Source: Vicinamibacterales bacterium
Lineage (GTDB): Bacteria > Acidobacteriota > Vicinamibacteria > Vicinamibacterales > UBA8438
Assembly (NCBI GenBank): GCA_965207665.1
Contig: CBDBMV010000002.1
Location: 2,905,704 to 2,969,703, forward strand
Direction: 5' to 3'
DNA: 64,000 bases
The notes under the pieces were generated by a model, which saw only the letters and a program-made list of their open reading frames with translations, was not told where the DNA came from and did no database searches. Below are positions 3,631-60,277 of this stretch, piece after piece. The position numbers and the translations under genes were made by a program. Numbering within the stretch: position 1 is the stretch's first letter; each line of letters begins with the position of its first letter.

Positions 3631-5784
3631 ATGAGAAAACTGCGGCTGGGCAACGTGGCGGTGGCGCGCGCGGCGCTGGCCTGCGCGGTGGCGGCAGGCT
3701 CCGCCCTGGTGGCGGCGGAGAACGACGGCGTCATCCGGGGCGTCGTCACGAGCGCCGACGGACCGGAAGCCGGCGTATGGGTGATTGCCGAGACCGACGA
3801 CCTGGACACCGTCTTCCGCAAGATCGTCGTCACCGGCGACGACGGGCGCTACGTTCTGCCGGAGCTGCCGGACGCCGGTTACGACGTCTGGGTGCGCGGC
3901 TACGGCCTGGTCGATTCGGAGCCCGTATCCGGGAGGCCGGATCAGCGGCTAGACCTGACCGCCGTGGTGGCGCCCACGCCGCGCGACGCCGCGCAGGTCT
4001 ATCCCTCCACCTACTGGCTGTCGCTCATCGACCTGCCGGCCGCGCACGAGTTCCCCGGCACCGGCCCGGACGGCAACGGCATCAACCCGCTGATGGGTAG
4101 CCAGGCCGAGTGGATCAACAACCTCAAGGGCTGCCAGCGCTGCCACCAGGTCGGCAGTGAGCGCACCCGGGAGATCCCGGACGTCGACGCGTTCGACTCG
4201 GCGCGCTCGGCTTGGGCCGACCGCGTGCTGCGCGGCCAGCGCGGCGCGCGCATGAACAGCTTCATCACCGGCTTCGGCCCCGAGCGCGCCCTCGACATGC
4301 TGGTGGACTGGACCGACCGGATTGCGGCGGGAGAAGCTCCCTCCGCGCCGCCCCGGCCGCGGGGCATCGAGCGCAACGTCGTCATCACGATGTGGAACTG
4401 GGGCAACAACGTCGCCTTCGTCCACGACGAGATCGCCACCGACAAGCGCAACCCGCGCGTCAACGCCAACGGCCCGCTGTACGGCGTCGACATCGGCAAC
4501 GACTTCCTGCTGGTGACCGACACGAACGAGCACCGCTCGGAGATGATCAAGATCCCGCTCCGGGAGAACGACCCGCCGGTGCCTTCGATGTTCGCGACCG
4601 AGGGCTTCAAGCCGTGGCGCGACTTCGGCGCCGAGGCGGTCTGGAACGACCCCGCCAACCCGCACAACCCGATGATCGACGCCGAGGGGCGCGTCTGGCT
4701 GACGACGCGGATACGCCACCCGGACAACCCGGACTGGTGCCGCGCCGGGTCGGACAACAAGTACGCGCAGTACTTCCCGCTCGACCGCGCCTTCCGCCAC
4801 ACCGGCTACTACGACCCGGAATCCGGAGAGTTCGAGCTGATCGGCACCTGCTACGGCACGCACCACCTGCAGTTCGCCGAAGACGAGCAGGACACGCTGT
4901 ACTTCAGCGGCGGCGGCGCCGTCATCGGCTGGCTGGACACGAAGCTGTACGACGCGACCGGCGACGAGCAGCTCTCCCAGGGCTGGTGCCCGACCGTCAT
5001 CGACACCAACGGCGACGGCGTCATCACGAAGCCGTGGAACGAGCCGCCGCCGCGCGGCAGCCGCGATCCCGCGGCGTTCGATCCGGCGCTCGACACCCGC
5101 GTCGTGGTCGGCGCCTACGGCGTCATCGCCAACCCGCTCGACGACGCGGTCTGGATCGTCTCGGACGATTTCCCGGGGCGGCTGCTGCGGCTCGACCGCG
5201 GCGACGACCCGCCCGCGAGCTGCATCAGCGAGCTGTACACCGTGCCGGTCGAGAAGGGCTACCGGACGCGCGGCCTGGACGTCGACCGCAACGGCGTGCT
5301 CTGGACCGCACTGGCCGGCAGCAGCCACTTCGCCTCGTTCGACCGGGGCAAGTGCACGGTCTTCGGCGGGCCGGAGGTGCGCGGCGGGCGGCAGTGCGAC
5401 GCCGGCTGGTCGTTCTACAAGGCGCCCGGCCCCAACTTCCGCAACACGGACATCGGGACCGACTTCCACTATTACAACTGGGTCGACCAGTTCAACACGC
5501 TCGGCCTCGGGGAGAACGTGCCGATAGCCAACGGCTCGAGCTCGGACTCGCTGCTGGCGCTCGATCCGGAGAGCGGCGAGTGGACCGTCCTGCGCGTGCC
5601 GTACCCGCTCGGCTTCCACAGCCGCGGGCTCGACGGCCGCATCGACGACCCGGACGCCGGCTGGAAGGGCCGCGGTGTCTACGCCACCTACGGCGCTGAC
5701 GCGGCGTGGCACGTGGAGGGCGGCCCCGTGGAGCCGGGCAACCTGGTCAGGTTCCAGATCCGCCCCGACCCCCTGGCGCACTGA
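3631..5784 (+). CDS. Secreted protein with a CarboxypepD_reg-like N-terminal domain and one CxxCH haem-c motif
   Basis: 717-aa ORF with a signal peptide. GVIRGVVTSADGPEAGVWVIAE...VTGDDGRYVLPELPDAGYDVWVRGYGL is a carboxypeptidase-regulatory-like fold motif. A single CQRCH is present. Confidence 0.7.
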   Translation: MRKLRLGNVAVARAALACAVAAGSALVAAENDGVIRGVVTSADGPEAGVWVIAETDDLDTVFRKIVVTGDDGRYVLPELPDAGYDVWVRGYGLVDSEPVSGRPDQRLDLTAVVAPTPRDAAQVYPSTYWLSLIDLPAAHEFPGTGPDGNGINPLMGSQAEWINNLKGCQRCHQVGSERTREIPDVDAFDSARSAWADRVLRGQRGARMNSFITGFGPERALDMLVDWTDRIAAGEAPSAPPRPRGIERNVVITMWNWGNNVAFVHDEIATDKRNPRVNANGPLYGVDIGNDFLLVTDTNEHRSEMIKIPLRENDPPVPSMFATEGFKPWRDFGAEAVWNDPANPHNPMIDAEGRVWLTTRIRHPDNPDWCRAGSDNKYAQYFPLDRAFRHTGYYDPESGEFELIGTCYGTHHLQFAEDEQDTLYFSGGGAVIGWLDTKLYDATGDEQLSQGWCPTVIDTNGDGVITKPWNEPPPRGSRDPAAFDPALDTRVVVGAYGVIANPLDDAVWIVSDDFPGRLLRLDRGDDPPASCISELYTVPVEKGYRTRGLDVDRNGVLWTALAGSSHFASFDRGKCTVFGGPEVRGGRQCDAGWSFYKAPGPNFRNTDIGTDFHYYNWVDQFNTLGLGENVPIANGSSSDSLLALDPESGEWTVLRVPYPLGFHSRGLDGRIDDPDAGWKGRGVYATYGADAAWHVEGGPVEPGNLVRFQIRPDPLAH

Positions 5785-10261: not shown

Positions 10262-11308
10262 ATGACGATGAGTTTTCGCAATCTGGCGGCGCTTGCAGTG
10301 GTCCTGGGTCTCGCGCTGGCGGCTGCGCCCGCCGCGGCGCAGTCGGAAACCGTAGCGCGCACGGCCTGGGGCGATCCCGACATCCAGGGCGTCTGGGACT
10401 ATCGGACGCTCACGCCGCTCGAACGGCCCCTGGAGCTGGGCGACAAGGCGTTCCTGACGCAGGAAGAGGCGGATGAACTCGAACGCGAGACGCTGGCCCG
10501 CAACGAGTTCCTGCTGAACCGCGAGCGGCAGGAGGCGACGGCCGGCGACCAGGTCGACCGGCGGGATGACGGCACGCCCGGCTTCTACAACAACTTCTGG
10601 ATGGACCGCGGCACGACGGCCATTGGCACGCGCCGCACGTCGCTCATCATCGAGCCGTCCAACGGACGCCTGCCGCCGCTGACGGCGCCGGCCGCCGCGC
10701 GCGCGGCGTCGGCGGAAGCCGAACGCATCGCGGGTGTGCGCCGCGGCATGCTGCCGGCCGCCAGCTACACGGACCTCGACGCGGGCGACCGCTGCATCCA
10801 GCACGCCAAGGCCGGTCCCCCGCTCAGCACCGGCGGCTACAACAACAACGTGCAGATCTTCCAGGCGCCCGGCTACGTGGTGCTGGTCCCGGAGCAGAAC
10901 CGCGAGTCGCGCATCGTTCCGCTCGACGGCCGGCCGCACGTGGCACCGCAGATCCGGCAGTGGATGGGCGACTCTCGCGGTCGCTGGGAAGGCGACACGC
11001 TCATCATCGAGACCGTGCACTTCAACGGCAAGCACGACCAGATCGGCCGGCCGCTGCTGAGCTGGGCCGATAACCTGCGGCTCATCGAGCGGATCACGCG
11101 GCTCGACGCCGAGAACCTGATGTACGAGTACACGGTCGACGACCCGACCATCTGGACGAGCGCCTGGACCGCCCAGCACCCGATGAAGCTGAATCCGGAG
11201 CCGCTGTACGAGTTCGCCTGCCACGAGGGGAACTACGGGCTGGAGGGCATCATGGCCGGCTCGCGCGTAGAGGAAGCCGAGGCGGAGGCGGAAGCCGCTT
11301 CCAGGTAG
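10262..11308 (+). CDS. Secreted protein of an unnamed conserved family ('X domain'), paralogue 1 of 6
   Basis: Start re-set to the ATG at 10262 (MTMSFRNLAALAVVLGLALAAAPAAAQ), with GGAGG 7 nt upstream. Family motifs: TAWGDPDIQGVW, TPLERP, RTSLIIEPSNGRLPPLT, DRC, RIVPLDGRPH, IRQWMGDSRGRWEGDTLIIET, LRLIERITR, YEFACHEGNY. Confidence 0.8.
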   Translation: MTMSFRNLAALAVVLGLALAAAPAAAQSETVARTAWGDPDIQGVWDYRTLTPLERPLELGDKAFLTQEEADELERETLARNEFLLNRERQEATAGDQVDRRDDGTPGFYNNFWMDRGTTAIGTRRTSLIIEPSNGRLPPLTAPAAARAASAEAERIAGVRRGMLPAASYTDLDAGDRCIQHAKAGPPLSTGGYNNNVQIFQAPGYVVLVPEQNRESRIVPLDGRPHVAPQIRQWMGDSRGRWEGDTLIIETVHFNGKHDQIGRPLLSWADNLRLIERITRLDAENLMYEYTVDDPTIWTSAWTAQHPMKLNPEPLYEFACHEGNYGLEGIMAGSRVEEAEAEAEAASR

Positions 11309-41567: not shown

Positions 41568-43010
41568 CTACTGCTCGGCGCCGCTGTCGCCCAACGGATC
41601 GTCCAGACCGCACAACGGACAGCCCACCACGGTGTCTCCAGTCTCGATGCCGAGCCGCTGCCGGCGGTCCGCGATCTCCTCCGCGAACTGTTCGTCCGTC
41701 AGGTAGATGCCGCGCGCCAGGTTGATCAACATCTGATCGACGGAACGCATGCCCGCGCCCGACCAGTTCCTGGGATCCGTGACGTTGGGATTCGTCGGCG
41801 AGTTGTTGAAGTAGCCGACCAGGCGCAGGATCGTGCCTTTCGGCAACAGCGGCGCTGCATCGTCCGCGTAGGTATAGACCCTGACCCAACTGTGGTCGTA
41901 CCCCACGCAGTTCAGCGTCTCCCGCATCTGGCCCCAGATCGCTTCCAGGCACATGCGCACGCCGGCCGCGTGCATGTGGGGCTCGAAGATGGTCATCTTC
42001 AGGTGCCGCGGGACCGTGAAGTAGATGTCGATCTCCTGGTCGGGATCCATCGGCTCCAGGTCGAGGTCCACGCTGGCCCAGGTGACGCCCTGCTCGTGCA
42101 CCTTCGGCTCGTATCCGCGCGGATGGAACTTGAATGCGACGTCCAGGCGGGCGCGCGTGTCCATGCCGTTGGAGTGCAGGTGGCCGTTCGGGAACACGAC
42201 GGTCGCCCCTGTCGGCATCAACCGGCCGGCGTCGGGGTCGAAGACGTCGGCGTTGCGGCCCACCTCGTGGGTCGGCCAGCCGCCGAGCCGCTGGCGTTCC
42301 TGGACCGTGTCGTCCGCATTGGGATCCACAACGGCAAGCACTGCGTGATGGAACACGAACAGTCCACCCACCGTGTTGCGCGCGGATCCGCTTTGCGACT
42401 CCGTGACCTCCTTGAATTCCAGCGCGGCGACGTAGCGGTCCTCCGTCAGGCCGCTCGGCGCCTCGCCGTGCGGCCCCCACCAGTCTGGCGCATCGGCGGC
42501 CACTTCGACGCTCGGCGACGACACGACCAGATCAGGTTGTCCTATTTCCCACTCATCCACGTCGATGAACGCCATGGGCGGCGGCATGTCGGCCGGATCG
42601 CCCAGCGGCGCGCCGCTGTCCGCCCACGCCGCGATCTTCGCGATCTCCTCGTCGCTCAGGGAAGGATCGTTCTTGAAGCGCTGGATGCCGATGTCCTTCT
42701 CGACGTACCAGGGCGGCATCGCCCCCGGCTTGTCCCGCAGCCCGGTCCGGTGCTTGATGGAGCGCGCCCAGGGACGCACCTCCTCGTAGTCGATCAGCGA
42801 CATCGGGGCCAGCGAATCGGGCCTGTGGCAGCGCTGGCAGCTCCGCTGCAGGATCGGGGCGATGTCATTCGTGAACGTCACCTGCTCGCGCGGTTCGACC
42901 TGTCCGGCCGCCGCGAGCGGCAACGCCGCAACGCCGAGGACGGCCGAACAACCGGCCGCCAGCAGTCGCGCCCGCCAGCGGCCGTTCCATCCGGTCCATC
43001 CGGCTGTCAT
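41568..43010 (-). CDS. Secreted haem-c (CxxCH) protein with PHM/DBH-like copper monooxygenase motifs, paralogue 2
   Basis: 480 aa. CQRCH followed by MSLIDYEEVRPWARSIKHRTG...MPPWYVEK; HH (VFHHAVL), HMH (EPHMHAAGVRM) and SVDQM. Colinear with 13005..14423. Confidence 0.7.
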   Translation of the reverse strand: MTAGWTGWNGRWRARLLAAGCSAVLGVAALPLAAAGQVEPREQVTFTNDIAPILQRSCQRCHRPDSLAPMSLIDYEEVRPWARSIKHRTGLRDKPGAMPPWYVEKDIGIQRFKNDPSLSDEEIAKIAAWADSGAPLGDPADMPPPMAFIDVDEWEIGQPDLVVSSPSVEVAADAPDWWGPHGEAPSGLTEDRYVAALEFKEVTESQSGSARNTVGGLFVFHHAVLAVVDPNADDTVQERQRLGGWPTHEVGRNADVFDPDAGRLMPTGATVVFPNGHLHSNGMDTRARLDVAFKFHPRGYEPKVHEQGVTWASVDLDLEPMDPDQEIDIYFTVPRHLKMTIFEPHMHAAGVRMCLEAIWGQMRETLNCVGYDHSWVRVYTYADDAAPLLPKGTILRLVGYFNNSPTNPNVTDPRNWSGAGMRSVDQMLINLARGIYLTDEQFAEEIADRRQRLGIETGDTVVGCPLCGLDDPLGDSGAEQ

Positions 43011-43956: not shown

Positions 43957-46395
43957 CTACAACCGGAACAGCCGGTTCAGCTTGACGACGAAGCCGCGGT
44001 TGCGCAATCCGTCGACGCGGATCGGCCGCAGCCCGCCTACGTCGCGCTCCTCGGTGTATACCACGAACAGCTCACTCCCCGGACTGTATTCCCACCGCAG
44101 CCGGAGATTGTTGCTCCAGCGGTCGTTGCTCGAGTTGTACTGCACCAGCCCGCTGAAGAACATCCGCGGGTTGAACGCGAAGTTGAAGCGGGTGCTGACC
44201 AGCGTGGTGGTGAACTCCCCCTCGGGCAGGTCGATGTCGTTGAACGAGATGGTCGGCTCGACGGAGAACTGGTTGGACACGTTGACGCGGCCCCGGCTGT
44301 ACTCCAGCGTGCGGATGTCGCCGCTCCAGAAGCTGCCGGCCGAGAACGCCAGACGGCCGCTCGTCTGGTGCTGCCCTCCGAGGGTGTAGGAAACCGTACC
44401 CGCCGTGAACCCGTAGCCACCGACCGGCAGCACCACGTCTCTCGAAATCCGGAACGGCTCCTGCAGCAGCTCGTACGAATTGGTCAGGTTCACCTCGAAG
44501 CGGTCGCTGTTGTGGAACTCGGTGGCGAAGTCCACCGTCCGCTCGCGCGTCTCCACGAAACCCTGGTCGGCGGTCGTGAAGTAGTCGACGCCGGCCTCGA
44601 GCGAATAGCGCCGCACGAGCGCGCTCCCCTGCGGGCGCGGACTGAAGCGGCCGGAGACGTTCGAGCGGCGGTAGTTGTCGCGCTGGAGGAAGCCGATCTC
44701 GGGCAGGAAGTTCTCCTCGACGGCGATGTGGTTCAGGGTCAGGCCGTAGCGGTCGCCCCCGTAGTCGAAACGCCCCTGGTAGCTGGCGTCCCGGCCGCCG
44801 GCCAGCGGCGTCCGGGTGCGCGCGTAGTAGGTCACGAAGTCGAGGTTCTCGAAGAAGGAGAACGTGCCGTCCACGCCGTACGCCTGGCTCGCGCCGGGGC
44901 CGACCAGCGACACGGAACGGTTGGTGAAGATGCCCCCCACGCTGCTGCGCCGCAGGATGTCGCGCCGGATGCGGAGCACGGTGAAGTTGGTCGACGCCGT
45001 TGCCGCCTCGGGCGATTCCTCCGTCTGGATGCTGAGCGCGCCGACGTCGAAGGCGCCCGCCTTGCCCGTCATCCGCGCACCGCCGTGGATCGGCACCACC
45101 ACCTGCACGTTGTTCGGGTCGCCCTCCAATCCGATCCGCCGGCTGTAGAACAGCGTCGGCGCGTCGCTCGGCTCGCCGGGGCTGCCGGCCCCGACGCCGC
45201 CGCGCGCGAACCCGAAGATGCCGCGACCCTCGAGGAAGAACTCCCGTTTCTCCGGAAAGAAGAGGCTGAAGCGGGTCAGGTTGACCTGCTGCTCGTCCAC
45301 CTCGACCTGGGCGAAGTCCGTGTTGTAGGTGAAGTCCGCGGTCAGGTTCTCCGTGACGCCCATCTTCACGTCGGCACCGAAGGCGCCGCTGCCGTCGTTC
45401 TCCCGAATGGGAATGGAGTTGCGGTCGGTGGTCACGCCGCCGATGCCGTACGGCTTGATCTCGACGAGCCGTCCGGTGTCCGGCGGCTCGATGCCGACCA
45501 GCGTCGCACCCGCCGAGACGCGGAAGATGCCGGCCGCGCCGCGCCCGCCGCCGGCCGAGATCGGGATCCGCGTCAGGTACGTCCACTCGTTCTTGCGGCG
45601 CACGCCGCGGCGCAACTGCACGCCCCACAACTGCGCGCCCCCGCCGCGGTAGCGGAGCGTCTTGAACGGTATCTCCATCTCCGCCGTCCAGCCGCCGTCG
45701 AAGCGTCCCGTGCGCACGTCCCACACGGGGTTCCAGTCGCCGTTGGGATTGCCTTCGTTCGTGAACTGCTGGTCGGCCCGCGCGCCGAGCGGGTTCGTGT
45801 AGAAGTTGAAGCCGTTGCGGCGGTCGTAGAACGTGTCGAAGAACACCGTGAAGGTGTCGTTCTGCCGCAACTGGCTGGTGTCGCGCCGCATCTCGTTGGC
45901 GATCCACTCGCTCTCGGGGGCGGAGTCGTGCACGCGCGCCGCCACGTACACGTTCTCCCCGTCGAACATGATCCAGGCTTCCGTGCGCTCGGTCGCGGGT
46001 GCGCCCTCCACGGGCACCTGCTGCAGGAAGTCCGTGATCGGCGGGACCGTGTCGTACACCTCCTCGTCGAGCACGCCGTCGAGACGGATGCCGGTCTCGA
46101 GCCGGATGGCGCGGACCGTGGTCCGGCCTTCCGCGTCGCGGTTCATCACCGCGGGCGCGACCGGCGCCGGCGGCCCGTCGATGGCCGCGGCGAGCGCGGG
46201 ATCGATTGCGGTGGCGGTCAAGGCGCCCGGCGCGACCTGACCCGGTCGGGGCCCTTCCGCCGCGGGAGAGGCCTGCGGGCGATCATCCTGCGCCTGCGCA
46301 AGAAGGCCCTCGGTCGGGGCGAGTAGCAGCAGGAACAGCAGCACCGCCGCGCGGCGAACCGCGCGCCGGAATGAGGACCGCGAGGGTATCGACAA
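43957..46395 (-). CDS. Secreted CBM9-like / DUF5916-type protein (large beta-rich, probably outer-membrane)
   Basis: IRLDGVLDEEVYDTVPPITDFLQQVPVEGAPATERTEAWIMFDGENVYVAARVHD... is typical of carbohydrate-binding-family-9-like + DUF5916 proteins, and the C-terminus ends in an aromatic-rich ...VKLNRLFRL. The start is uncertain. The TTG at 46395 gives MSIPSRSSFRRAVRRAAVLLFLLLLAP; alternatives are the GTG at 46410 and the ATG at 46506. Confidence 0.7.
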   Translation of the reverse strand: MSIPSRSSFRRAVRRAAVLLFLLLLAPTEGLLAQAQDDRPQASPAAEGPRPGQVAPGALTATAIDPALAAAIDGPPAPVAPAVMNRDAEGRTTVRAIRLETGIRLDGVLDEEVYDTVPPITDFLQQVPVEGAPATERTEAWIMFDGENVYVAARVHDSAPESEWIANEMRRDTSQLRQNDTFTVFFDTFYDRRNGFNFYTNPLGARADQQFTNEGNPNGDWNPVWDVRTGRFDGGWTAEMEIPFKTLRYRGGGAQLWGVQLRRGVRRKNEWTYLTRIPISAGGGRGAAGIFRVSAGATLVGIEPPDTGRLVEIKPYGIGGVTTDRNSIPIRENDGSGAFGADVKMGVTENLTADFTYNTDFAQVEVDEQQVNLTRFSLFFPEKREFFLEGRGIFGFARGGVGAGSPGEPSDAPTLFYSRRIGLEGDPNNVQVVVPIHGGARMTGKAGAFDVGALSIQTEESPEAATASTNFTVLRIRRDILRRSSVGGIFTNRSVSLVGPGASQAYGVDGTFSFFENLDFVTYYARTRTPLAGGRDASYQGRFDYGGDRYGLTLNHIAVEENFLPEIGFLQRDNYRRSNVSGRFSPRPQGSALVRRYSLEAGVDYFTTADQGFVETRERTVDFATEFHNSDRFEVNLTNSYELLQEPFRISRDVVLPVGGYGFTAGTVSYTLGGQHQTSGRLAFSAGSFWSGDIRTLEYSRGRVNVSNQFSVEPTISFNDIDLPEGEFTTTLVSTRFNFAFNPRMFFSGLVQYNSSNDRWSNNLRLRWEYSPGSELFVVYTEERDVGGLRPIRVDGLRNRGFVVKLNRLFRL

Positions 46396-46504
46396 CTCCG
46401 CATCGTACACGATCGGTACTGTGCTACCCTGCCACCGATACCGGGGGCGAACGCCGCCACCGTCCCGACCCCCAAACGCGCACGCGGAGAGGAGCACGGG
46501 CGCC

Positions 46505-48259
46505 ATGGAACGCAAGCAGACCACTCTCGCGACCGTCGTCGCCGCCGCGCTGGCGCTGGCGCCCGCCGCCACCGTGGCCGCCGACTACCATCACGTTCAT
46601 ATCACCGCGCCCAGCCCGGCCATGGGCGTCGACTGGTACTCGGAGTACATGGGGTGCGAGCCGGTCGCCGACCGCGACGACGCCGCGACCTGCGGGGGCG
46701 TGGAGCTCGTGTTCGTGCCCCAGCCGACGAGCGGCGGCAGCCTGGGCACGGGCATCAACCACATCGGGTTCTCGTTCCCCGACCTGGACGCCAGGATGGC
46801 GGAGTTCGAAGCGGTCGGGGTGCGCGGGGCCGGCGTGCGCCTGCAGCGCTTCGAGGACGGGTCGACCGTGCGGGACATCCCCGGACTGTTCAAGATCGCG
46901 TTCATCTTCGATCCCTGGGGCACACGGATCGAGCTGGTGGAAGACGCCGAGCGGCTCGGCTTCCACCACGTTCATCTCAGCGCGACCGATCCGGACTCGA
47001 CGCTGGCCTGGTACCGCGACGTGCTAGGCGGCGAGCCGGCCACGCTCAGGGACAGGGTGGACGGCGTGGAGTTCGGCGACATCCTGTTCCTGGTCTCCGC
47101 ACATCCGGAGGGCCCGCCGCCGGCCGCCACGCAGGGCCGCGCCATCGACCATCTCGCATTCGTGGTGCCGGATCTCGACGCGGAGGCGCCGAGGCTCCGC
47201 GAGCAGGGCGTGCGTTTCCAGGAGGAGCCGGCCGTACCGGCGAACGCCCGCACGGCGGCGCAGCGGGCCTTCATCTTCGGCCCGGACAACGTGCGGATAG
47301 CCATGGTGGAGACCGGCTTCGCGGGTGTCGGCAACGAGCTGGCCGCCGCCATTCGCGGCAGCGATGCGCTGGAGCCGTACGACGTCCCGCGGACGTCCTG
47401 GGGCGAGCCCGACCTGCAGGGCATCTGGACGGGCAACCCCTCGCACGGCATCCCGCTGGAGCGCCCCGAGGGCGTCGAGGCCGACGAGCTGACCCCGGAG
47501 GAAGCGATCGCGCGCCGCGAGGGCGGCACCCTGGGCAGCATCTGGGGCTACGACCGCGAGTGGCGCGACATCACGCTCAGCTACGGCCACGCCGCCGTGT
47601 CCACGCAGGTGGCGATGATCGTCGACCCGCCCGACGGCCGTCTGCCGGCGCGCACGCCCTATGGGCAGACGCTGTACGAAAGCGTCCTGGGCAACTACGA
47701 GAGCCGCCCCTACGCCGGTCCCGAGAACGTACGCCCGGCCGCCCGCTGCCTGACGCGCGGCGCTCCGGGCATGATGATGCCGACCGTCTACAACAACGGT
47801 CTGCAGATCGTGCAGGGACCCGGCTTCGTCGCCATCACCAAGGAGATGATCCACGAGACGCGGGTCATTCCGACCGCGCCGCGCGAACGCTTGGGAGATG
47901 ACCTCGACCTGTGGCTGGGCGACCCGCAGGGCCGCTGGGAAGGCGACATGCTGGTGGTCGAGACGACCAACTTCGACGACCGTGTTTCTTCCATCGGGCG
48001 GCCCATCTGGGCCTCCTCGAGCGACCAGTTGACGTTGACGGAACGGTTCCGCCGGATCGGCCCGCTGACGCTGCAGTACGAGTTCACCATCGACGATCCG
48101 AAGGTGTGGACCAAGCCCTGGACGGCCATGTTCCGGTTCGACAGGGACGACGCCCAGTACGAACTGGTCGAGTACGCCTGCCACGAGGGCAACTACGCCA
48201 TGACCGGCATTCTGGCCGGCGGGCGCGCCATCGAGGCGGCGGCCGAGGCGGGCCGCTGA
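46505..48259 (+). CDS. Secreted fusion protein: two VOC/glyoxalase-type domains + X domain (paralogue 2 of 6)
   Basis: Start re-set to the ATG at 46505 (MERKQTTLATVVAAALALAPAATVAA). VOC motifs: YHHVHITAPSP, INHIGFSFPDLDA, FDPWGTRIELVE; then FHHVHLSATDP, AIDHLAFVVPDLDAE. The X domain begins at about 47380: PRTSWGEPDLQGIW, MIVDPPDGRLP, ARC, GRWEGDMLVVETTNF, LTERFRR, VEYACHEGNY. Confidence 0.8.
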   Translation: MERKQTTLATVVAAALALAPAATVAADYHHVHITAPSPAMGVDWYSEYMGCEPVADRDDAATCGGVELVFVPQPTSGGSLGTGINHIGFSFPDLDARMAEFEAVGVRGAGVRLQRFEDGSTVRDIPGLFKIAFIFDPWGTRIELVEDAERLGFHHVHLSATDPDSTLAWYRDVLGGEPATLRDRVDGVEFGDILFLVSAHPEGPPPAATQGRAIDHLAFVVPDLDAEAPRLREQGVRFQEEPAVPANARTAAQRAFIFGPDNVRIAMVETGFAGVGNELAAAIRGSDALEPYDVPRTSWGEPDLQGIWTGNPSHGIPLERPEGVEADELTPEEAIARREGGTLGSIWGYDREWRDITLSYGHAAVSTQVAMIVDPPDGRLPARTPYGQTLYESVLGNYESRPYAGPENVRPAARCLTRGAPGMMMPTVYNNGLQIVQGPGFVAITKEMIHETRVIPTAPRERLGDDLDLWLGDPQGRWEGDMLVVETTNFDDRVSSIGRPIWASSSDQLTLTERFRRIGPLTLQYEFTIDDPKVWTKPWTAMFRFDRDDAQYELVEYACHEGNYAMTGILAGGRAIEAAAEAGR

Positions 48260-48300
48260 CGCGAGCATCCCGCGGCTCCTGACGACGGAGGGAAACGTCA

Positions 48301-49374
48301 ATGGCACGACTGCGCAACCTCGCCCGGCTGCTCGCCGTCGTGGGCGCATTCTGGCTGGCCGCCGGCATCGCCGGCCAGGAGCTGCCGCCCTGGTCGACAG
48401 CGCCCGAAGGCTGGACGCCGGCGCTGACGCCATGGGGTGTGCCGGACCTGACCGGGATCTGGAGCAGCAAGCACAGCACGCCGCTGGAGCGGCCCGAGGA
48501 GTACGCCGGCCGCGAGTTCCTCACGGACGAGGAGATCGCCGCACTCGATACGGAGCGGGCACGCGCGGAGGTCGCGGGCGAGGTGGCCGGCCGGGACGTG
48601 CGCGCCACGACCGGCACCCCGGCCGACGTGGAGGGCGCCTACAACAACATATTCAGCACCAACCTGGGCACACGCTATAGCCGCACGAAGCGCACGGCGA
48701 TGATCGTCGATCCGCCGGACGGCCGCCTCCCGCCGTTCACCCCGGAGGCCGAGCGGAGCCGACAGGTCAGCGAGGGGCTGCGGGCCCAGGCGCGGGAGGA
48801 TCGCGAGCGCGCCGGCGTGCCGTACTTCGTCGACCTGCGCTACCGCTACGACAACCCGGAGGACACCGGCATCCTTGAGCGCTGCCAGGGTGTCCGCATC
48901 CCCTGCACGGGCGGCATCTGCGGCTTCAGCCGCATGGTGCTCGGACCCGACTCGCTGACGATCTACCACGAGCAGTCGTCGGGCGGCGGCGGGTACCGCC
49001 TGATCTGGCTGGACGGCCGTCCGCATCCGCCGGCCCACATCCGGCAGTGGCTGGGGCACTCGGTGGGCCGCTGGGAAGGCGACACGCTGGTGGTCGACAC
49101 CACGAATTTCACGCACCAGACGCCGTACCTGGGCTCCGCGGAGAACCTGCACCTCGTCGAGCGCTTCAGGCGCGTCGCCCCCGACCTCATCCAGTACCGG
49201 ATCACCGTGGAAGACGCGACCGTCTGGACGCGGCCGTGGACCATGGAGCTCGCCCTGATGCTGCAGGACAACGCCAGGAACCAGATCGGCGAGACCGGTT
49301 GCCACGAAGGCAACTACTCGATGACCAGCATGCTCGCCGGCGCGCGACTGGAAGAGGCGCGGGGTCTCCGCTAG
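48301..49374 (+). CDS. Secreted X-domain protein, paralogue 3 of 6
   Basis: 357 aa with a signal peptide. TPWGVPDLTGIW, TPLERP, RTAMIVDPPDGRLPPFT, ERC, WLDGRPHPPAHIRQWLGHSVGRWEGDTLVVDTTNF, LHLVERFRR, GCHEGNY. Closest to the X domain of 58271..60277. Confidence 0.8.
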   Translation: MARLRNLARLLAVVGAFWLAAGIAGQELPPWSTAPEGWTPALTPWGVPDLTGIWSSKHSTPLERPEEYAGREFLTDEEIAALDTERARAEVAGEVAGRDVRATTGTPADVEGAYNNIFSTNLGTRYSRTKRTAMIVDPPDGRLPPFTPEAERSRQVSEGLRAQAREDRERAGVPYFVDLRYRYDNPEDTGILERCQGVRIPCTGGICGFSRMVLGPDSLTIYHEQSSGGGGYRLIWLDGRPHPPAHIRQWLGHSVGRWEGDTLVVDTTNFTHQTPYLGSAENLHLVERFRRVAPDLIQYRITVEDATVWTRPWTMELALMLQDNARNQIGETGCHEGNYSMTSMLAGARLEEARGLR

Positions 49375-49427
49375 TCTCCTGGCGGCCTGTCGCGGGCACA
49401 CCTCCCTGCAGCAGGCCCCATGACCGC

Positions 49428-50267
49428 ATGAGTCGTGCACCGAAAGCACATCCTGCGCCCGGCGATCCGTATCTGCTGGGTACCGATCCGGAGGAAGCGC
49501 GGCGCCTCCACACGCAACACCGCCTGTGGGCGGACGCGGCGCACGACCTCTGGGACCGCGCCGGATTCGGTCCGGGCGCGCGCCTGCTCGATCTCGGCTG
49601 CGGCCCGGGTTTCGCCGCCCTCGAGCTGGCGGAGCGGGTGGGCGCCGGGGGCCGGGTGCTGGCCATCGACGAGTCGGACCGCTTCATCGCCGGCCTGGTC
49701 CGGGAAGCGAACCGGCTCGGTATCGGGCAGCTTGCGGCACGCGTGCAGCGGGTCGAGGAGCTGCGGCTGGAGCCTGCCGCGCTCGACGGCGCCTTCATAC
49801 GCTGGCTCTTCTGCTTCCTGCCGGATCCGGCGCCGGTCATCGACAGTGTCGTGAGCGGATTGCGACCCGGCGGCCGTCTCGTGGTGTGGGACTACCTCAA
49901 CTACGGCGCGACGACGCTGCAGCCGCGGAGTCCGGCATTCGATCGGGTGCTGGCAGCGGTAGAGGAAAGCTGGCGGCGCACCGGCGGCGACCTGAACGTG
50001 GGCGGCCGCCTTCCAGAGCTGATCGCGGCGTCCGGCTGCCGCCTGCTGGAGCTTGTGCCGCTGGCGCGGTTCGTCCGGCCGGGCACGGCGTTCTGGGACT
50101 GGCCGACGCAGTTCTTCTTCAGCCACGTGCCGCGGCTGGTCGCGGCCGGCCTGCTCACGGAGGCCGAACAGCGCGCGTTCGAAGACGAATGGCGCGTTCG
50201 CGAGCGCGAGCCCGGGACCTTCCTGGCCGCGCCGCCGATGATCGGGATCGTCGGCGAGAAGGAATAA
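49428..50267 (+). CDS. Class I SAM-dependent methyltransferase
   Basis: Start re-set to the ATG at 49428 (MSRAPKAHPAPGDPYLLG...). SAM-binding motif I is LLDLGCGPG, followed by ...GGRVLAIDES.... Confidence 0.8.
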   Translation: MSRAPKAHPAPGDPYLLGTDPEEARRLHTQHRLWADAAHDLWDRAGFGPGARLLDLGCGPGFAALELAERVGAGGRVLAIDESDRFIAGLVREANRLGIGQLAARVQRVEELRLEPAALDGAFIRWLFCFLPDPAPVIDSVVSGLRPGGRLVVWDYLNYGATTLQPRSPAFDRVLAAVEESWRRTGGDLNVGGRLPELIAASGCRLLELVPLARFVRPGTAFWDWPTQFFFSHVPRLVAAGLLTEAEQRAFEDEWRVREREPGTFLAAPPMIGIVGEKE

Positions 50268-50291
50268 CCCGCGACGCTCTTCAGCCTTTGG

Positions 50292-51254
50292 CTACGGAGC
50301 GCTGCGGCGCTCTGCCGCGCGCACGCCGCTCAGGATGTTCGGCACGGCGTAGTTCGCCTCGTGACAGGCGTATTCGTACAGGTCGTAACCTTCATCGCGC
50401 TCCAGCGGGAATGCGACCGTCCACGCCCGCGTCCAGGTGAGCGGGTCCTCGATGCGCACCTCGTAGTCGAGCGCGCCGCCGTCCCCCAGGCGGAACCGCT
50501 CGACGAGCCGTAGCTCCGTGCTGGTCGGGTTCCCGTTGCCGTTGCGCGCGTAGGAGCCGGTCCGGCCGTTTGAATTCGTCGTTTCGACAACCAGGGTGTC
50601 CCCTTCCCACACGCCGCGCGAATCGCCCATCCACTGCCGGATGCCGGCGGCGATGTGCGGGCGCCCGTCGAGCGGAATCACGCGGGTCTCGTGCACCATC
50701 TCGTGGTGAATCACGACCTGTCCCGGCGTCTGGAGGATCTGGTACGCGGAGGCATAGATGTTGGGAAACTGGGAGCCCAGCACGCCGCGGCTGATGCAGC
50801 GGTCGTAGGGCCGCAGGTCCTCCGGGCCGGCGTGCGCGTAGTCTCCCGCCGCCTTCGTCCGCCAGACTGCCGCCCGGCGGGCGCCGTCCCCGGTCATCGC
50901 CGGCAGCCGCCCGTTCGGCGGGTCGATGACGAGCGAGGCCAGCGGCGGCGACGGCCGCCGCCGGGTCCAGCCGGCGGGTGGAACCAGCTTCGGCCGGACG
51001 CGGGCCGCGGCGGCGGCGTTGCGCGCCGCCAGCTCCTCGTCGGTCAGCACGGCACGCAGCCCGAGCTCTTCGGGGCGCTCGAACGGCACGCCGATCGCGG
51101 CGATGCTGACCCACACCCCCTGCAGGTCGGGATCGCCCCAGGGCGTCCGCGCCCCTGCGCCGGGTGACTGCGCCGCCGTTGCCGGGGGGAATATGACCCA
51201 GCTCAAAAACCCGACCGCGAGCACGCAAACCGCAATTGCCTTCAGTCTCTCCAT
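50292..51254 (-). CDS. Secreted X-domain protein, paralogue 4 of 6
   Basis: Start re-set to the ATG at 51254 (MERLKAIAVCVLAVGFLSWVIFPPATAAQ). TPWGDPDLQGVW, PFERP, LVIDPPNGRLPAMT, DRC, HETRVIPLDGRPH, IRQWMGDSRGVWEGDTLVVETTN, LRLVERFR, YEYACHEANY. Confidence 0.8.
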   Translation of the reverse strand: MERLKAIAVCVLAVGFLSWVIFPPATAAQSPGAGARTPWGDPDLQGVWVSIAAIGVPFERPEELGLRAVLTDEELAARNAAAAARVRPKLVPPAGWTRRRPSPPLASLVIDPPNGRLPAMTGDGARRAAVWRTKAAGDYAHAGPEDLRPYDRCISRGVLGSQFPNIYASAYQILQTPGQVVIHHEMVHETRVIPLDGRPHIAAGIRQWMGDSRGVWEGDTLVVETTNSNGRTGSYARNGNGNPTSTELRLVERFRLGDGGALDYEVRIEDPLTWTRAWTVAFPLERDEGYDLYEYACHEANYAVPNILSGVRAAERRSAP

Positions 51255-55600: not shown

Positions 55601-57229
55601 CTAGTTCTGCTGCTGACCTGCGCCGGCTGCGGCATCCTCTACGGAAACGTCGCGGAGGCGTTCCTGCACCGTCGCCGCCAAACCGAGGCTGGTGTCGGCC
55701 CCCAGCTCCTCCAGCAGCGCCGCCGTCTCGGGGAATTCCTGGAAGTAGAAGGACTGCTTGCTGCCTTCCGCCAGGCGGTACGGCGTGCGGCCCCGGAAGT
55801 CGCGTGCGTCGATGTCGGCGCCGTGGTTCACCAGGATCCGGATGACCTCGTTGAGCCCGCGGAACGCCGCGCCGTGGAGGGCCGTGAAGTCGGCTTCGTT
55901 GCGGGCTTCGACGGCGGCTCCGGCGTCCAGCAGGAGCGTCACGGCCGCCTCCGAGCTGGACGACCGCTTGCCGCGCCGCAGGTTCTTGTCGTTCGTATAG
56001 CGGCCCAGCCCCGCCGCCACCATGAGCGGCGTCGTGCCGTCGTCGGTGGCCAGGGTCGGGTCGGCGCCGGCAGCCAGCAGCCGCCGCATGACCTCGACGC
56101 CCTCTTCGCCGCCCTGGCACCCCGCGCCGCCGCACCCGGTGGGAATCGCAATACCGAATATCGGCTTGCCGTTCGCGCCCATGGAGGCAATCCACAAAGG
56201 CGTGGCGCCACGGAGGTCCCCCACGCCGGACGTATAGGTATCGAACGCGCCCCTGCGCGGGTACCCGAGATACTCCTCGAACACCGCGGAGTCCGTGATC
56301 CGCGCGTTCGGGTCGGCCCCGCGGGCAAGGAGCGCCTCGACGAGCGGCAGCCGCTGGCTCTCCGCCAACCCGCGGCCCCGGCTCGCGGCGCCGTGCTTCT
56401 GGTTCCACTCGGCCAGCCAGAACGCCATGTGTCCGGTCGCCGCGTGCAGGGCGGTCACGCCCGACACCTTCGCATTGGGGTCGGCGCCCTCTTCGAGCAG
56501 GAAGTGCGCAAACTCCGCCTGCCCGAGGACGATGGAGTACGGCAGCACGTGCGCCCCGTCCGCACCAACGGCGTCGATGTCGACACCGGCCACCAGCAGC
56601 GTGCGGGCCATCTCGATGTCGCCGTTGCGGGCGGCGATCATGAGGAGGGTGAACCCCTTGGCGGTCGAGACATCCAGATCCGCGCCGTGCTCTATCAGGC
56701 GATGGACGATGTCGGCGTACTGCCCTGCCACCGCCCACATCAGCGCGGTGTTGTGCGTCTCGACCGTCGCGGCGTTGACGTCGGCGCCCGCCGCCAGCAG
56801 CAGCCTGACGACCTCCGCGTTGCCGGTCTCGACCGCGGTCATGAGCGGCGTCAACCCGCTCGTCTGCGCCGCGTTCGGGTCGGCGCCTGCGTCGAGCAAC
56901 CGCTCGACCATGCCCGGACTGGCGTTCTCGCAGGCCCGCGCCAGCGCCGTCACGCCGTGGTCGTCGGCGGCGTTGACATTCGCGCCGGCCCGGAGCAGGA
57001 CGCCGGCCGCCTCCACGTCGTCCCAATGCGCGGCGTAGACGAGAGCCGTGACGCCGTCCGCCCGCGCGGCGTTCGCGTCAACGCCTTCCGCCAGCAGCGC
57101 CCGCGCGGCGGCCCAATCCTGATCCGCGGCGGCGTCGACCAGCCGCGCACCGTCCTGCCCGGCGGCCGGCGGGGCCGCCAACGCCAGCAAAGTGGCGGCA
57201 GCAGCCACACGGCCCATGTTCGAGGTCAT
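55601..57229 (-). CDS. Secreted ankyrin-repeat protein
   Basis: Signal peptide (MTSNMGRVAAAATLLALAAPPAAGQ), then many ANK units (e.g. DGVTALVYAAHWDDVEAAGVLLRAGANVNAADDHGVTAL, SGLTPLMTAVETGNAEVVRLLLAAGADVNA). It ends 4 nt before the next gene. Confidence 0.85.
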   Translation of the reverse strand: MTSNMGRVAAAATLLALAAPPAAGQDGARLVDAAADQDWAAARALLAEGVDANAARADGVTALVYAAHWDDVEAAGVLLRAGANVNAADDHGVTALARACENASPGMVERLLDAGADPNAAQTSGLTPLMTAVETGNAEVVRLLLAAGADVNAATVETHNTALMWAVAGQYADIVHRLIEHGADLDVSTAKGFTLLMIAARNGDIEMARTLLVAGVDIDAVGADGAHVLPYSIVLGQAEFAHFLLEEGADPNAKVSGVTALHAATGHMAFWLAEWNQKHGAASRGRGLAESQRLPLVEALLARGADPNARITDSAVFEEYLGYPRRGAFDTYTSGVGDLRGATPLWIASMGANGKPIFGIAIPTGCGGAGCQGGEEGVEVMRRLLAAGADPTLATDDGTTPLMVAAGLGRYTNDKNLRRGKRSSSSEAAVTLLLDAGAAVEARNEADFTALHGAAFRGLNEVIRILVNHGADIDARDFRGRTPYRLAEGSKQSFYFQEFPETAALLEELGADTSLGLAATVQERLRDVSVEDAAAGAGQQQN

Positions 57230-57289
57230 AGCCGCTTTCCCACGTCCATAGTAGCTGGATCTCACGGCTTCAGCCATGCGCTGACCGGG

Positions 57290-58228
57290 CTACCGCGACC
57301 GGTCGCCATCGCGCGCCCGCGCGCCGCGCAGGATGTTGAGCATGCCGTAGTTGCCCTCGTGGCAGGCGTATTCGAACAGCGTCCCGTCCAGTGCGGTCAT
57401 GGGTATCGAAGCGCTCCACGGCGCGGCGTACGTCGTGGGATCGAAAACCGTGAACTCGTAATCGATCGCATCCGCGCCCACGCGCGTGAACCGCTCGACC
57501 AGCCGCAGGTTCTCTCCGGCCCCGAGCACGAGCGGCAGGCCGCTGGTTGCGCTCAGCGCACGCTCGTCGGCCTTGGCGTCGAAGTTCGTGGTCTCGACAA
57601 CCAGGGTCTCGCCTTCCCACCGTGCGCGCGAGTCGCCCAGCCACTGCCGAATCCGCGCCGGCAGGTGCGGTCGTCCATCCAGCGGGATGACGCGTGCCTC
57701 GTGGACCATCTCGACCAGAATCACGACGTAGTCCGGCGTCTGAACGATCTGGTAGTTGTGGTTGTAGAAGCCGGGAATCATCGCGCCGGGCAGCCCGCGC
57801 GTGATGCAGCGGTCGTACAGGTTCAAGTCGGCGAACGAGTCCGGGTCGGTCACGCCGCGCCGCGCGTCGGCGAAGAACGCGTCCTTCGCGCGGACGCGCT
57901 CGGTCAGCGCGGGCAGCCGGCCATCGGACGGATCGATGATGAGGGTCGCCTGCGCCGACCCACCTCCCGATTCCAGCCAGAAGCTGTTGTAGGCGCCGGT
58001 GGCGTTGTTGGCCTGCCGTTCACCGCCGCGCGTGAACCGTTCGTCCCGCTCGGACCGCTCCTCGTCAGTGAAAGGCCGCTGGAATGGAGTTGTGGTCGTG
58101 TTGGTCCAGGCGCCCTGCAGGTCGGGATCGCCCCAGGGCGTGCGCCAGGTCTGTTCACCACCCGGTTGTGCGCCGAACAGGCCGGGCGCCGGCAGGATAC
58201 ACAGCATCAACAGGATTGCCCGTTTCAT
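57290..58228 (-). CDS. Secreted X-domain protein, paralogue 5 of 6
   Basis: Start re-set to the ATG at 58228 (MKRAILLMLCILPAPGLFGAQ). TPWGDPDLQGAW, LIIDPSDGRLPALT, DRC, HEARVIPLDGRPH, IRQWLGDSRARWEGETLVVETTNF, LRLVERFTR, FEYACHEGNY. Confidence 0.8.
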   Translation of the reverse strand: MKRAILLMLCILPAPGLFGAQPGGEQTWRTPWGDPDLQGAWTNTTTTPFQRPFTDEERSERDERFTRGGERQANNATGAYNSFWLESGGGSAQATLIIDPSDGRLPALTERVRAKDAFFADARRGVTDPDSFADLNLYDRCITRGLPGAMIPGFYNHNYQIVQTPDYVVILVEMVHEARVIPLDGRPHLPARIRQWLGDSRARWEGETLVVETTNFDAKADERALSATSGLPLVLGAGENLRLVERFTRVGADAIDYEFTVFDPTTYAAPWSASIPMTALDGTLFEYACHEGNYGMLNILRGARARDGDRSR

Positions 58229-58270: not shown

Positions 58271-60277
58271 TCAGCGTGACCCCAGGCGCTCCAGCCGGCG
58301 CGCGCCGGCCAGGATGTTCGTCAGCGCGTAGTTTCCCTCGTGGCACGCGGCCTCGTAGATCTGGTTGCGGCGGTTGTCCTCCTCCGCCAGCGGGAGCTCG
58401 ATTGTCCACGGCCGCGTCCATACCGTCGGATCGTCGACGGTCACCCGATGAATGAGCCGGTCGGGGCCGACCCGCGTGAAGCGTTCGACGAGGTGGAGAT
58501 TGTCGCGCGAGCCGCGGAAGCTGGTCCTGGACGTGAAGTTCGTGACGTCCACCACCAGCGTGTCGCCCTCCCAGTGCCCTTTCGAGTGCCCGAGCCACTG
58601 GCGAACATGGGCCGGCGGGTGCGGGCGGCCGTCGAGATGGATCGTGCGGTAGGCGCCGCCGTGATGGCCGTACTCCTGGTAGATCGTTACCGCCGACGGG
58701 CTCTGGACGATGCGGCTGAAGGTGCCCGTGCTCACCCGAACGAACGGCAACGTGACACCCAGGCAGCGGTCGCTCGGACGGTCCTCCGGATTGTCGGTGT
58801 TCTCGCTGCTGCCGGCATCGACGAAGTATGGAATCGGATCGCCCTCGGCAGTGGTGGCAAGGGGCGCGCCGCCGCGGCGGCCGTCGCGCACGCCGCGCGC
58901 CCGGGCGTCCGCGGTGAGCGGCGGCATCCTGCCGTCCGGCGGATCGACGATCAGGGAGGTGCGCCTGGTCCAGATCACCCGGTCGCCGCGGCCGGTGAAC
59001 GCGTCGTTGTACGCGCCCTCGACGTCGGCGACGGTGCCGCCTTCCGGGCGGAAGTCGCGACCCGGCGAGGCTTCCTGCGCCCCCTCCAGCTCGGCGACCT
59101 CCGCGTCGGTCAGGTACTCGCGCCCGTCGAACCGCGGGGGACGTTCCAGCGGCGTCAGCGTATAGCCGGGGCTCCAGATGCCCTGGAGGTCGGGATGCCC
59201 CCATGCCGTGCGCGGCGGTTTCCAGGCGCCGGCATCGGCCGCGGGCGCGGGCGGGCCGGGTATGCGGCCCTCCGTGTTCAGCCGGATACGGTAGATCCCC
59301 GTCCGCGCCGTGATGTACAGCGTACGGCCGTCATCGCCCCATGCGAGGTTGGCGGGCGCCTCGGCCGGGCTGATCGTGCCGAGGTGGTCTCCACCGGGCG
59401 ACAGCAGCCAGATGCCGCCCGGACCCGTCGCAAACACGTTGCCCGCCAGATCGACCTTCATGCCATCGCGTCCGCCCGTGAGCGCCGGGTCGTCGATCGC
59501 GTAGAAGACGCGCCCGTTCGTGGCGCCGCCGGGGCCCAGGTCGTAAGCCTTCCAGGGACCGCGCGTGTTGGCGACGTACAGCGTCCGTTCGTCGGGCGAC
59601 AGCGCGATGCCGTTGGGCGCGTCCTCCCTGGCAAGCAGCTCGAGGCGGCCGTCCGTGTGCAGCCGGTAGACGCCGTTGTAGTCGAGCTCGCGGAGCGGGG
59701 ATTCCTCGTACCCGTCCAGGCCGTACGACGGATCGGTGAAGTACAGCGTCCCATCTGCGGCGATGTCGATGTCGTTGGGGCTGTTGAGGCGCCTGCCCTC
59801 GTAGCTGTCCGCGAGCACGGTGCGGGTGCCGTCGGCTTCGATGCGCGAAACCACCCGGTTGCCGTGCTCGCAGATGACGAGGCGTCCCTCGGCGTCGATG
59901 GTCAAGCCGTTCGGCGTGGGGTTGCGCCCCGTGAGATCACCTTCGAACCACGGCGCGCGAAAGACGCTCGCGCCTTCGGCCGCGGTCCACTGGTAGATGT
60001 GCCGGTCGCGGACTTCGGAAAACAGCAGGCGCGACTCGCTCCGCACCCACACCGGCCCCTCCGTGAACATGTAGCCGTCGGCGAGCTTCTCGATGCGTGC
60101 GCCGGCCGGGACCAGGGCGTCCAGACGCGGGTCGACGCGAAGGATCGTCCCGTCGCCGGCCGGCTCGGGCGCCGCCGGCACACGCGCACCCGCCGTGGAT
60201 CGGTCGGGCGCCGGGGGCACACCGCACGCGGCCGCGACGGCGCCGAGACACAGCAAGGCGAGCAGCGGAGATCTCAT
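58271..60277 (-). CDS. Lipoprotein fusion: SMP-30/gluconolactonase/LRE-like six-bladed propeller + X domain (paralogue 6 of 6)
   Basis: The track ORF 58271..61798 is over-extended. The ATG at 60277 gives MRSPLLALLCLGAVAAACG (lipobox). SGL motifs: FTEGPVW, PNGLTIDAEGRLVICEHG, NSPNDIDIAADGTLYFTDP, PNGIALSPDERTLYVANT, DGMKVDLAGNVFAT. The X domain begins at about 59225: RTAWGHPDLQGIW, TPLERP, SLIVDPPDGRMPPLT, DRC, HLDGRPHPPAHVRQWLGHSKGHWEGDTLVVDVTNF, LHLVERFTR, EAACHEGNY. Confidence 0.8.
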   Translation of the reverse strand: MRSPLLALLCLGAVAAACGVPPAPDRSTAGARVPAAPEPAGDGTILRVDPRLDALVPAGARIEKLADGYMFTEGPVWVRSESRLLFSEVRDRHIYQWTAAEGASVFRAPWFEGDLTGRNPTPNGLTIDAEGRLVICEHGNRVVSRIEADGTRTVLADSYEGRRLNSPNDIDIAADGTLYFTDPSYGLDGYEESPLRELDYNGVYRLHTDGRLELLAREDAPNGIALSPDERTLYVANTRGPWKAYDLGPGGATNGRVFYAIDDPALTGGRDGMKVDLAGNVFATGPGGIWLLSPGGDHLGTISPAEAPANLAWGDDGRTLYITARTGIYRIRLNTEGRIPGPPAPAADAGAWKPPRTAWGHPDLQGIWSPGYTLTPLERPPRFDGREYLTDAEVAELEGAQEASPGRDFRPEGGTVADVEGAYNDAFTGRGDRVIWTRRTSLIVDPPDGRMPPLTADARARGVRDGRRGGAPLATTAEGDPIPYFVDAGSSENTDNPEDRPSDRCLGVTLPFVRVSTGTFSRIVQSPSAVTIYQEYGHHGGAYRTIHLDGRPHPPAHVRQWLGHSKGHWEGDTLVVDVTNFTSRTSFRGSRDNLHLVERFTRVGPDRLIHRVTVDDPTVWTRPWTIELPLAEEDNRRNQIYEAACHEGNYALTNILAGARRLERLGSR

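Follow-up and report, generated by a model that had tools for sequence, protein, structure and literature searches.

A VOC domain pair fused to a member of a large unnamed protein family in Vicinamibacterales: a candidate exported small-molecule-processing protein

Here we describe a gene fusion found in a 64,000-nucleotide stretch of DNA (the window) from a Vicinamibacterales bacterium of the phylum Acidobacteriota (assembly GCA_965207665.1, contig CBDBMV010000002.1, positions 2,905,704 to 2,969,703 of the forward strand). The gene at 46505-48259 of the window encodes two VOC domains (together VOC2), joined by a linker to a further domain, X. VOC2-X is a genuine Rosetta-stone fusion in the sense of Marcotte and Enright, as its components occur as separate genes in other genomes. 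It arose once and both of its halves are under purifying selection. X represents one of the larger protein families that have neither a name nor a Pfam or NCBIfam model, and as the public label of such proteins is just 'VOC family protein', more than half of the fusion protein is unannotated. As relatives carry the same parts as separate genes side by side, the fusion identifies a firm functional partner for the X family. We lean towards a joint reading in which VOC2-X is an exported protein, fused once, whose halves would cooperate in one small-molecule-processing unit.

Results and discussion

Structure of the fusion gene and its VOC domains

The initial annotation of this DNA, made from the letters alone, had proposed one open reading frame (ORF) behind a signal peptide, encoding two VOC-like modules and, from about nt 47380, a complete X domain. 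This layout was borne out. A single unbroken ORF runs on the forward strand from ATG 46505 to TGA 48257-48259, and all the peptide strings quoted earlier are present in its 584-aa product. The ORF list also offers GTG 46421 as an alternative start of the same frame, but ATG 46505 is the credible one, because the Shine-Dalgarno-like GGAGAGGAG precedes it at 10-nt spacing and homologues of 577-587 aa begin there. The N-terminus, MERKQTTLATVVAAALALAPAATVAA followed by DYHHVH, shows a charged n-region, a hydrophobic core and an A-x-A site, a pattern that suggests a Sec signal peptide and export of the protein. X starts near nt 47390; it has a WGxPDLQGxW arm, the motifs DPPDGRxP and RC, and a predicted barrel with eight or more strands, and after EYACHEGNY comes a C-terminal helix. 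The coordinates of all features are collected in Table 1. A scan of 46200-50400 for promoters and terminators found nothing, such a scan being uninformative for this phylum.

The VOC family model PF00903 matched the whole protein in 2 stretches (4.8e-20). When scored alone, residues 24-150 gave 31.9 bits and residues 151-275 gave 50.1 bits, each passing the gathering score of 20.6. Thus the N-terminal region, for which the initial annotation had considered failure in a hidden Markov model (HMM) search, scores as VOC twice. Among 50 homologues, H29, H30, H32, E67, H86, E143, C51 and C63 of domain 1 were 100% conserved, as were H154, H200, H216 and E269 of domain 2, with H155 at 96%. The His and Glu residues at the canonical VOC metal positions (H30, E67, H86 and E143; H155 or H154, H216 and E269) were therefore kept, and the metal ligand H7 of FosA aligned to H155. 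By analogy, one site would carry a glyoxalase-I-like His/Glu/His/Glu set and the other a 2-His-1-carboxylate set like that of FosA or the extradiol dioxygenases, and both may bind metal.

A sequence search of the PDB with the fusion returned marginal VOC matches only, the best of FosA type (E 0.002). Foldseek with the whole protein matched single-chain two-domain VOC proteins, the VOC part dominating and nothing being learned about X. These matches ranged from E 7e-12 (6bnz) to 4e-9, with template-modelling (TM) scores up to 0.66 of the target. VOC2 resembles maize glyoxalase I (5d7z, 6bnz, 6bnx), human GLOD4 (3zi1, 9csj), 1zsw of B. cereus, 3oaj of B. subtilis and the hydroquinone dioxygenase PcpA (4huz) in having four beta-alpha-beta-beta-beta modules per chain, at a sequence identity of 13-18%. 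Unlike these proteins, the fusion is predicted to be exported behind a signal peptide, has an H-H-x-H first strand in both domains together with a conserved Cys pair, and is joined to a 288-aa non-VOC domain.

Distribution and selection of the fusion

Independent sequence data, the check that the initial annotation had proposed, revealed no indel or frameshift across the junction. Logan contigs from four runs, belonging to at least three studies, showed zero insertions or deletions over 46400-48400, and single contigs extending from 46400 or 46446 to 47428 crossed the VOC-to-X junction with 0, 1 and 13 substitutions. A search of 5.8 billion proteins yielded more than 120 public clusters of about 580 aa with 63-91% identity to the fusion and a coverage of 93-100% for nearly all (one 89%). 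These public fused forms come from metagenome-assembled genomes (MAGs) of Vicinamibacteria/Vicinamibacterales, and some of them are named just 'VOC family protein [Acidobacteria bacterium]'. In whole-genome searches, all 13 further species of the genus carried the full-length fusion, and so did 10 of the 11 further genera sampled from the family, the eleventh having it in two consecutive pieces; there are usually 1-3 copies per genome. Other families of the order gave domain-level matches only and the fusion was absent from them. The fusion is thus not unique to this assembly, as the initial annotation had allowed it might be.

The genome under study itself carries three fused VOC2-X paralogues, 65-70% identical. 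Compared with genus orthologues, the ratio of nonsynonymous to synonymous substitution rates (dN/dS) was 0.09-0.20 in each of the two halves, VOC and X, and 0.07-0.27 in the linker. There is a negligible chance that misassembly or a spurious frameshift created the fusion, or that it is a pseudogene in decay: the same open frame recurs across independent assemblies, runs and genera with purifying selection on it, nothing was found in favour of such an origin, and we consider it already refuted.

Split forms and origin of the fusion

Both the same architecture and its split versions, which the initial annotation had suggested searching for, were found. Eight genomes of the genus (G013, G002, G004, G005, G006, G007, G010 and G011; whole-genome search) also carry adjacent VOC2 and X genes, in that order, that are 55-58% identical to the fused protein. 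At the split locus of G013 (L007; Table 1), the 264-aa VOC2 has its own signal peptide and ends with TGA; the X gene starts 26 nt further on, after AGGAGG, again with its own signal peptide, and both parts are 56-58% identical to the fusion. Comparison with this split form shows that linker residues 271-296 occupy the place of the stop codon, the spacer and the X signal peptide. More distant Vicinamibacterales/Acidobacteriota MAGs (L041, L044, L076 and L080) have the two genes the other way round: X comes first and its stop overlaps the start of VOC2, with 36% and 43% identity to the window protein. The genome under study also has a distant VOC2-like gene 16 nt upstream of an X gene, and another that is divergent from an X gene.

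In a maximum-likelihood tree of X, 19/19 fused copies formed one clade (99/98), the four split copies formed its sister clade (100/99), and the standalone X genes fell outside. This topology indicates one fusion, followed by duplications.

Operon setting of the fusion

The order of genes in the split loci is a short relative of X (short-X), the VOC2 and X pair, and a DUF6152 gene; six other genera show the same order with VOC2-X fused. Genomes with short-X upstream and DUF6152 downstream of VOC2-X are G013, G005, G007, G010, G015, G017, G018, G020, G022 and G024, and in most genera it is VOC2-X or the split pair that sits between the short-X-like and the DUF6152 genes. This is the ancestral setting of the fusion, which the window copy has left: neither it nor the two other fused copies of the genome have a short-X or DUF6152 neighbour, and no match to DUF6152 was found within the window.

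Short-X, about 270 aa long, has about 30% identity to the half of X that forms the barrel; the two cysteines are kept in it, but HEGNY is not. DUF6152 (PF19649, 4.8e-32) is predicted to be a small exported protein. With cleavage between ALG and HHAFSAEFD, its mature N-terminus would be His-His-Ala-Phe-Ser, and this predicted N-terminal His-His resembles N-terminal histidine or histidine-brace-like metal sites. Of the 17 DUF6152 loci of the genome under study, 12 have an X-family gene no more than 300 nt away, in most cases one of the short-X type. Its orthologues of the G013 short-X and DUF6152 genes (C2:737895-739128; 86% and 91% identical) are paired without VOC2 or X between them, whereas G013 has both. 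The short-X and DUF6152 pair therefore looks like a recurring core. A literature search found no paper mentioning DUF6152 or PF19649.

The X family

The 309 residues of the fusion that follow its VOC part gave no Pfam or NCBIfam match, and neither the single sequence nor a profile of 37 X paralogues matched anything in the PDB by sequence. When these 37 paralogues were scanned against Pfam one by one at E <= 5, no recurrent family appeared, and no lipocalin or FABP family.

Six copies of X were detected in the window by tblastn, namely four standalone genes, the VOC fusion and an SMP-30-type fusion. With an HMM of these six, the 4.29-Mb genome gave 184 ORFs, of which 163 are full-length; the family makes up about 5-6% of its genes (about 2,950 by a crude gene call). 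The paralogues have a median pairwise identity of 41% and no pair exceeds 90%, therefore the family is old and diversified rather than recently amplified. In public data, the X profile matched 25,171 representatives of 50%-identity clusters, 2,481 of them at E <= 1e-30. The hosts are Acidobacteriota (Vicinamibacterales, Bryobacterales, Terriglobia and Thermoanaerobaculia) and some Gammaproteobacteria. Literature on Vicinamibacterales with gene-family expansion or pyrroloquinoline quinone (PQQ) was searched and nothing was found on the X family.

Across the 163 full-length paralogues, 23 positions are at least 98% conserved, among them R414, C415, Q437, R453, W478, E513, E556, C559, H560, E561 and N563 (numbered as in the fusion). 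The fused X of the window deviates at just three of the positions that are at least 85% conserved. Cys415 and Cys559, the pair also kept in short-X, probably form a disulfide, and the invariant polar set suggests that the family has in common a site for catalysis, cofactor binding or partner binding.

An AlphaFold model of X, built from 37 paralogues of its own genome, reached a predicted local distance difference test (pLDDT) score of 81 and a predicted TM (pTM) score of 0.81. In this model, an N-terminal arm of 140 residues is followed by eight consecutive strands (model residues 143-258), and HEGNY marks the beginning of a long helix at the C-terminus. Foldseek of this model against the PDB gave no match at E <= 1e-3. 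The best, weak matches were the tardigrade protein SAHS, CRABP2 and FABPs (E 1.6e-3 to 3e-2, target-normalised TM ~0.5, ~120 columns). Like the calycins (CRABP2, FABP4, CRBP1, SAHS 5xn9), the C-terminal half of X is predicted to form an antiparallel barrel of at least eight strands, a weak likeness that covers about 120 of 295 residues at 9-16% identity. Unlike them, X has the 140-residue arm with invariant proline/glycine motifs, the C-terminal helix, two invariant cysteines and a nearly invariant polar cluster, is predicted to be exported, and has no sequence relationship to any Pfam family.

In metagenome runs, Logan contigs break at the X motifs WGxPDLQGxW, WEGDTLVV and EYACHEGNY, and the summed depth rises up to thousand-fold there (peaks at 47405-47471, 47941-48007 and 48142-48208), because many paralogues share those words. 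In these communities the X family contributes to fragmented assemblies.

Other partners of X

X fusions in the genome under study comprise the three VOC2-X copies, one fusion to an SMP-30/gluconolactonase/LRE-like (SGL) propeller and one to a PQQ-dehydrogenase-type propeller (868-aa ORF, C2 minus strand, reverse-strand offsets 981689-984293). A public protein (P0159, 714 aa) has X behind a squalene-hopene-cyclase-C-like domain (SQHop_cyclase_C, PF13243, 2.3e-10). We counted the operon-like neighbours around the 153 X genes called in this genome by a crude gene call. They included 45 other X genes, 18 PQQ dehydrogenases (PF01011/PF13360; PF01011 up to 1e-198), 7 DUF6152 genes, 6 haem-c proteins of the kind encoded at 41568-43010 of the window, and several NHL/SGL and sorbosone-dehydrogenase-like propellers. 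All these neighbours are exported enzymes acting on small molecules.

Proposed role of VOC2-X and alternative readings

In the joint reading that we favour, two adjacent operon genes, encoding VOC2 and an X-family barrel, would have fused once in the ancestor of this Vicinamibacterales family, the 26-residue linker replacing the stop codon, spacer and X signal peptide. The product would be exported and be periplasmic or secreted. VOC2 would provide one or two metal centres from its His/Glu/His/Glu and His/His/Glu sets, both of which are invariant. The X barrel, with an FABP-like core, the long N-terminal arm and the cluster R414/Q437/R453/E513/E556/H560/E561/N563, would hold, prime or receive the substrate; it may bind and present it, or contribute a conserved polar site of its own. 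The initial annotation had suggested that X works together with small-molecule chemistry in the periplasm. This suggestion gained support from the split VOC2 and X pairs in two gene orders, from the monophyly of the fused clade as sister to the split clade, from the fusions of X to SMP30/gluconolactonase, PQQ-dehydrogenase and terpene-cyclase-like domains, and from the operons that X shares with PQQ dehydrogenases and DUF6152. Among purely genomic lines of evidence, none is of a stronger kind than a selectively maintained fusion of single origin that is accompanied by split forms in two orders, and here it speaks for X acting in the cell envelope together with a metal-dependent small-molecule enzyme.

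Several observations weigh against the joint reading. The VOC part stayed below every curated equivalog cut-off: it scored 36.7 bits against 120 for glyoxalase I (TIGR00068; PRK10291 15.8 against 246), 20.5 against 275 for the FosA-type fosfomycin resistance transferase, 12.4 against 320.2 for catechol 2,3-dioxygenase/type I extradiol enzymes (TIGR03211) and 12.2 against 277 for 4HPPD (TIGR01263). The reaction type is therefore not transferable, and the VOC subfamily is left without assignment. As the match of X to FABP, CRABP and SAHS is weak, even 'ligand-binding barrel' is a tentative description, and the abundance of invariant polar residues in X is no less consistent with catalysis or cofactor binding than with the role of a passive carrier. 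The whole-protein model had a pTM of 0.66 with a low-confidence linker (pLDDT 53-72), and no RNA run was found, the search giving only runs whose type is not recorded. With its ancestral short-X and DUF6152 neighbours gone, the window copy may moreover act differently from the operon form.

It is possible, though in our view improbable, that X is itself the catalytic core, a common engine with varied heads, and that VOC2 is an accessory which binds or pre-processes the substrate or delivers metal. About 23 positions at least 98% conserved among 163 paralogues of 41% median identity would be unusual for pure carriers, X stays constant among fusions to three or four unrelated enzyme folds, and the family, with its 25,171 representatives, is very large; however, the H-E-G-N-Y part of the motif is missing from the short-X relatives, which retain just the two cysteines, X matches no known enzyme fold, and the invariance of the VOC metal ligands argues for catalytic activity of VOC2. 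The long, poorly conserved and low-confidence linker, the split forms in both gene orders and the split partners that each have a signal peptide of their own, and are thus predicted to be exported separately, would also agree with halves that take successive steps of a single periplasmic pathway and have no defined interface, the fusion serving only co-export and 1:1 stoichiometry. We regard this as unlikely, since the fusion has been kept through several duplications and in more than 11 genera, and since the VOC2-linked X subfamily has conserved features of its own (GYDREWRD, IPTxPR replacing LDGRPH, and QYELVEYACHEGNY), as expected for co-adaptation.

A role in sequestration or resistance, with VOC as a binder (as in bleomycin or mitomycin resistance) and the barrel as a second binder of an envelope toxin, appears very improbable. 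The full metal-ligand sets are invariant in both VOC domains, unlike those of the metal-free bleomycin-binding proteins, and the genomic neighbours are oxidoreductases, not efflux or resistance genes. It is true that the VOC superfamily includes pure binding proteins, that calycin-like barrels are typically binders, and that the best PDB sequence matches, though marginal (E 0.002), were FosA-type resistance enzymes.

A broader view, which we put forward as speculative and rather doubtful, is that DUF6152 and the X family, in its long and its short form, make up the core of an unrecognised modular periplasmic metalloenzyme platform in Acidobacteriota and some Proteobacteria, its barrels being catalytic or obligatory for presenting the substrate. 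Heads would have been added to this platform by operon linkage or by fusion, such as the VOC pair, the SMP30 lactonase (58271-60277), PQQ dehydrogenases and the terpene-cyclase-like domain. If so, about 184 paralogues would amount to a large repertoire of substrate specificities in one bacterium. The new element described here is the unannotated partner domain X on a VOC enzyme, and the wider system of X, short-X and DUF6152 could be more novel. For biochemistry, the VOC2-X fusion offers a compact construct, one soluble polypeptide of 558 residues, and possibly a first handle on the large periplasmic enzyme sets of the abundant soil, marine and sponge-associated Vicinamibacterales.

Neighbours of the fusion and other genes of the window

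The initial annotation had placed a standalone X paralogue 41 nt downstream of the fusion and a methyltransferase dependent on S-adenosylmethionine (SAM) after it. Both genes are present as claimed, starting at 48301 and 49428, but they carry no weight as functional context. The downstream X gene was rejected as an obligatory partner: it is kept in G001 and G003, fragmentary in G012 and missing from G005 and G008, and so degraded or lost in three of six genus members. The methyltransferase was likewise rejected as a partner, since it has no signal peptide, and is thus cytoplasmic, and since its synteny is confined to the genus. The gene arrangement around the window fusion is syntenic only within the genus.

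Table 1. Features of the VOC2-X gene, of other genes in the window, and of the split locus L007 of genome G013 (coordinates of that locus)
Feature	Position	Strand	Basis or remark
Shine-Dalgarno-like GGAGAGGAG	46486-46494	+	10 nt 5' of ATG 46505; read from sequence
Predicted Sec-type signal peptide, residues 1-26	46505-46582	+	Sequence pattern, predicted cleavage between VAA and DY; homologue starts coincide
VOC domain 1, residues 27-146	46583-46942	+	PF00903 31.9 bits alone; conservation; fold matches
VOC domain 2, residues 152-270	46958-47314	+	PF00903 50.1 bits alone; conservation; FosA alignment
Linker, residues 271-296 (26 residues)	47315-47392	+	pLDDT 53-72; comparison with split locus L007; dN/dS 0.07-0.27
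X domain, residues 297-584 (288 aa) and stop	47393-48259	+	Aligns end to end with five other window X copies
Standalone X paralogue, own signal peptide (predicted)	48301-49374	+	41 nt 3' of fusion stop; no terminator-like site between
SAM-dependent methyltransferase, no signal peptide	49428-50267	+	Pfam Methyltransf_31/11/25
DUF5916/CBM9-like envelope protein, divergent	43957-46390 (start approximate)	-	PF19313, PF06452
Standalone X paralogue	50292-51254	-	tblastn
Standalone X paralogue	57290-58228	-	tblastn
Standalone X paralogue	10262-11308	+	tblastn
Second fusion, SMP-30/gluconolactonase/LRE-like propeller and X	58271-60277 (X part 58271-59224)	-	PF08450 6.9e-38
L007 short-X	1440-2258		
L007 VOC2	2275-3069		
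L007 X	3096-4076		
L007 DUF6152	4132-4554		

A copy of the divergent DUF5916/CBM9-like protein, 27% identical, adjoins VOC2-X in G015 (L012 12654-14888, same strand), and may be a recurrent neighbour. The second fusion of the window has a possible lipoprotein signal (LCLGAVAAAC), and its X part shares the subfamily signature GGxY…HPPAH…LGHS with the standalone X at 48301-49374. An exported protein of 480 aa, which has a CxxCH haem-c motif but matches nothing in Pfam, is encoded on the minus strand at 41568-43010; the minus strand at 55601-57277, beside X genes, encodes an exported protein of many ankyrin repeats. Related k-mers of the VOC2-X gene were found in sponge and marine metagenomes at shares of 0.18-0.29 and, together with the ankyrin-repeat neighbour, hint at host-associated or marine relatives.

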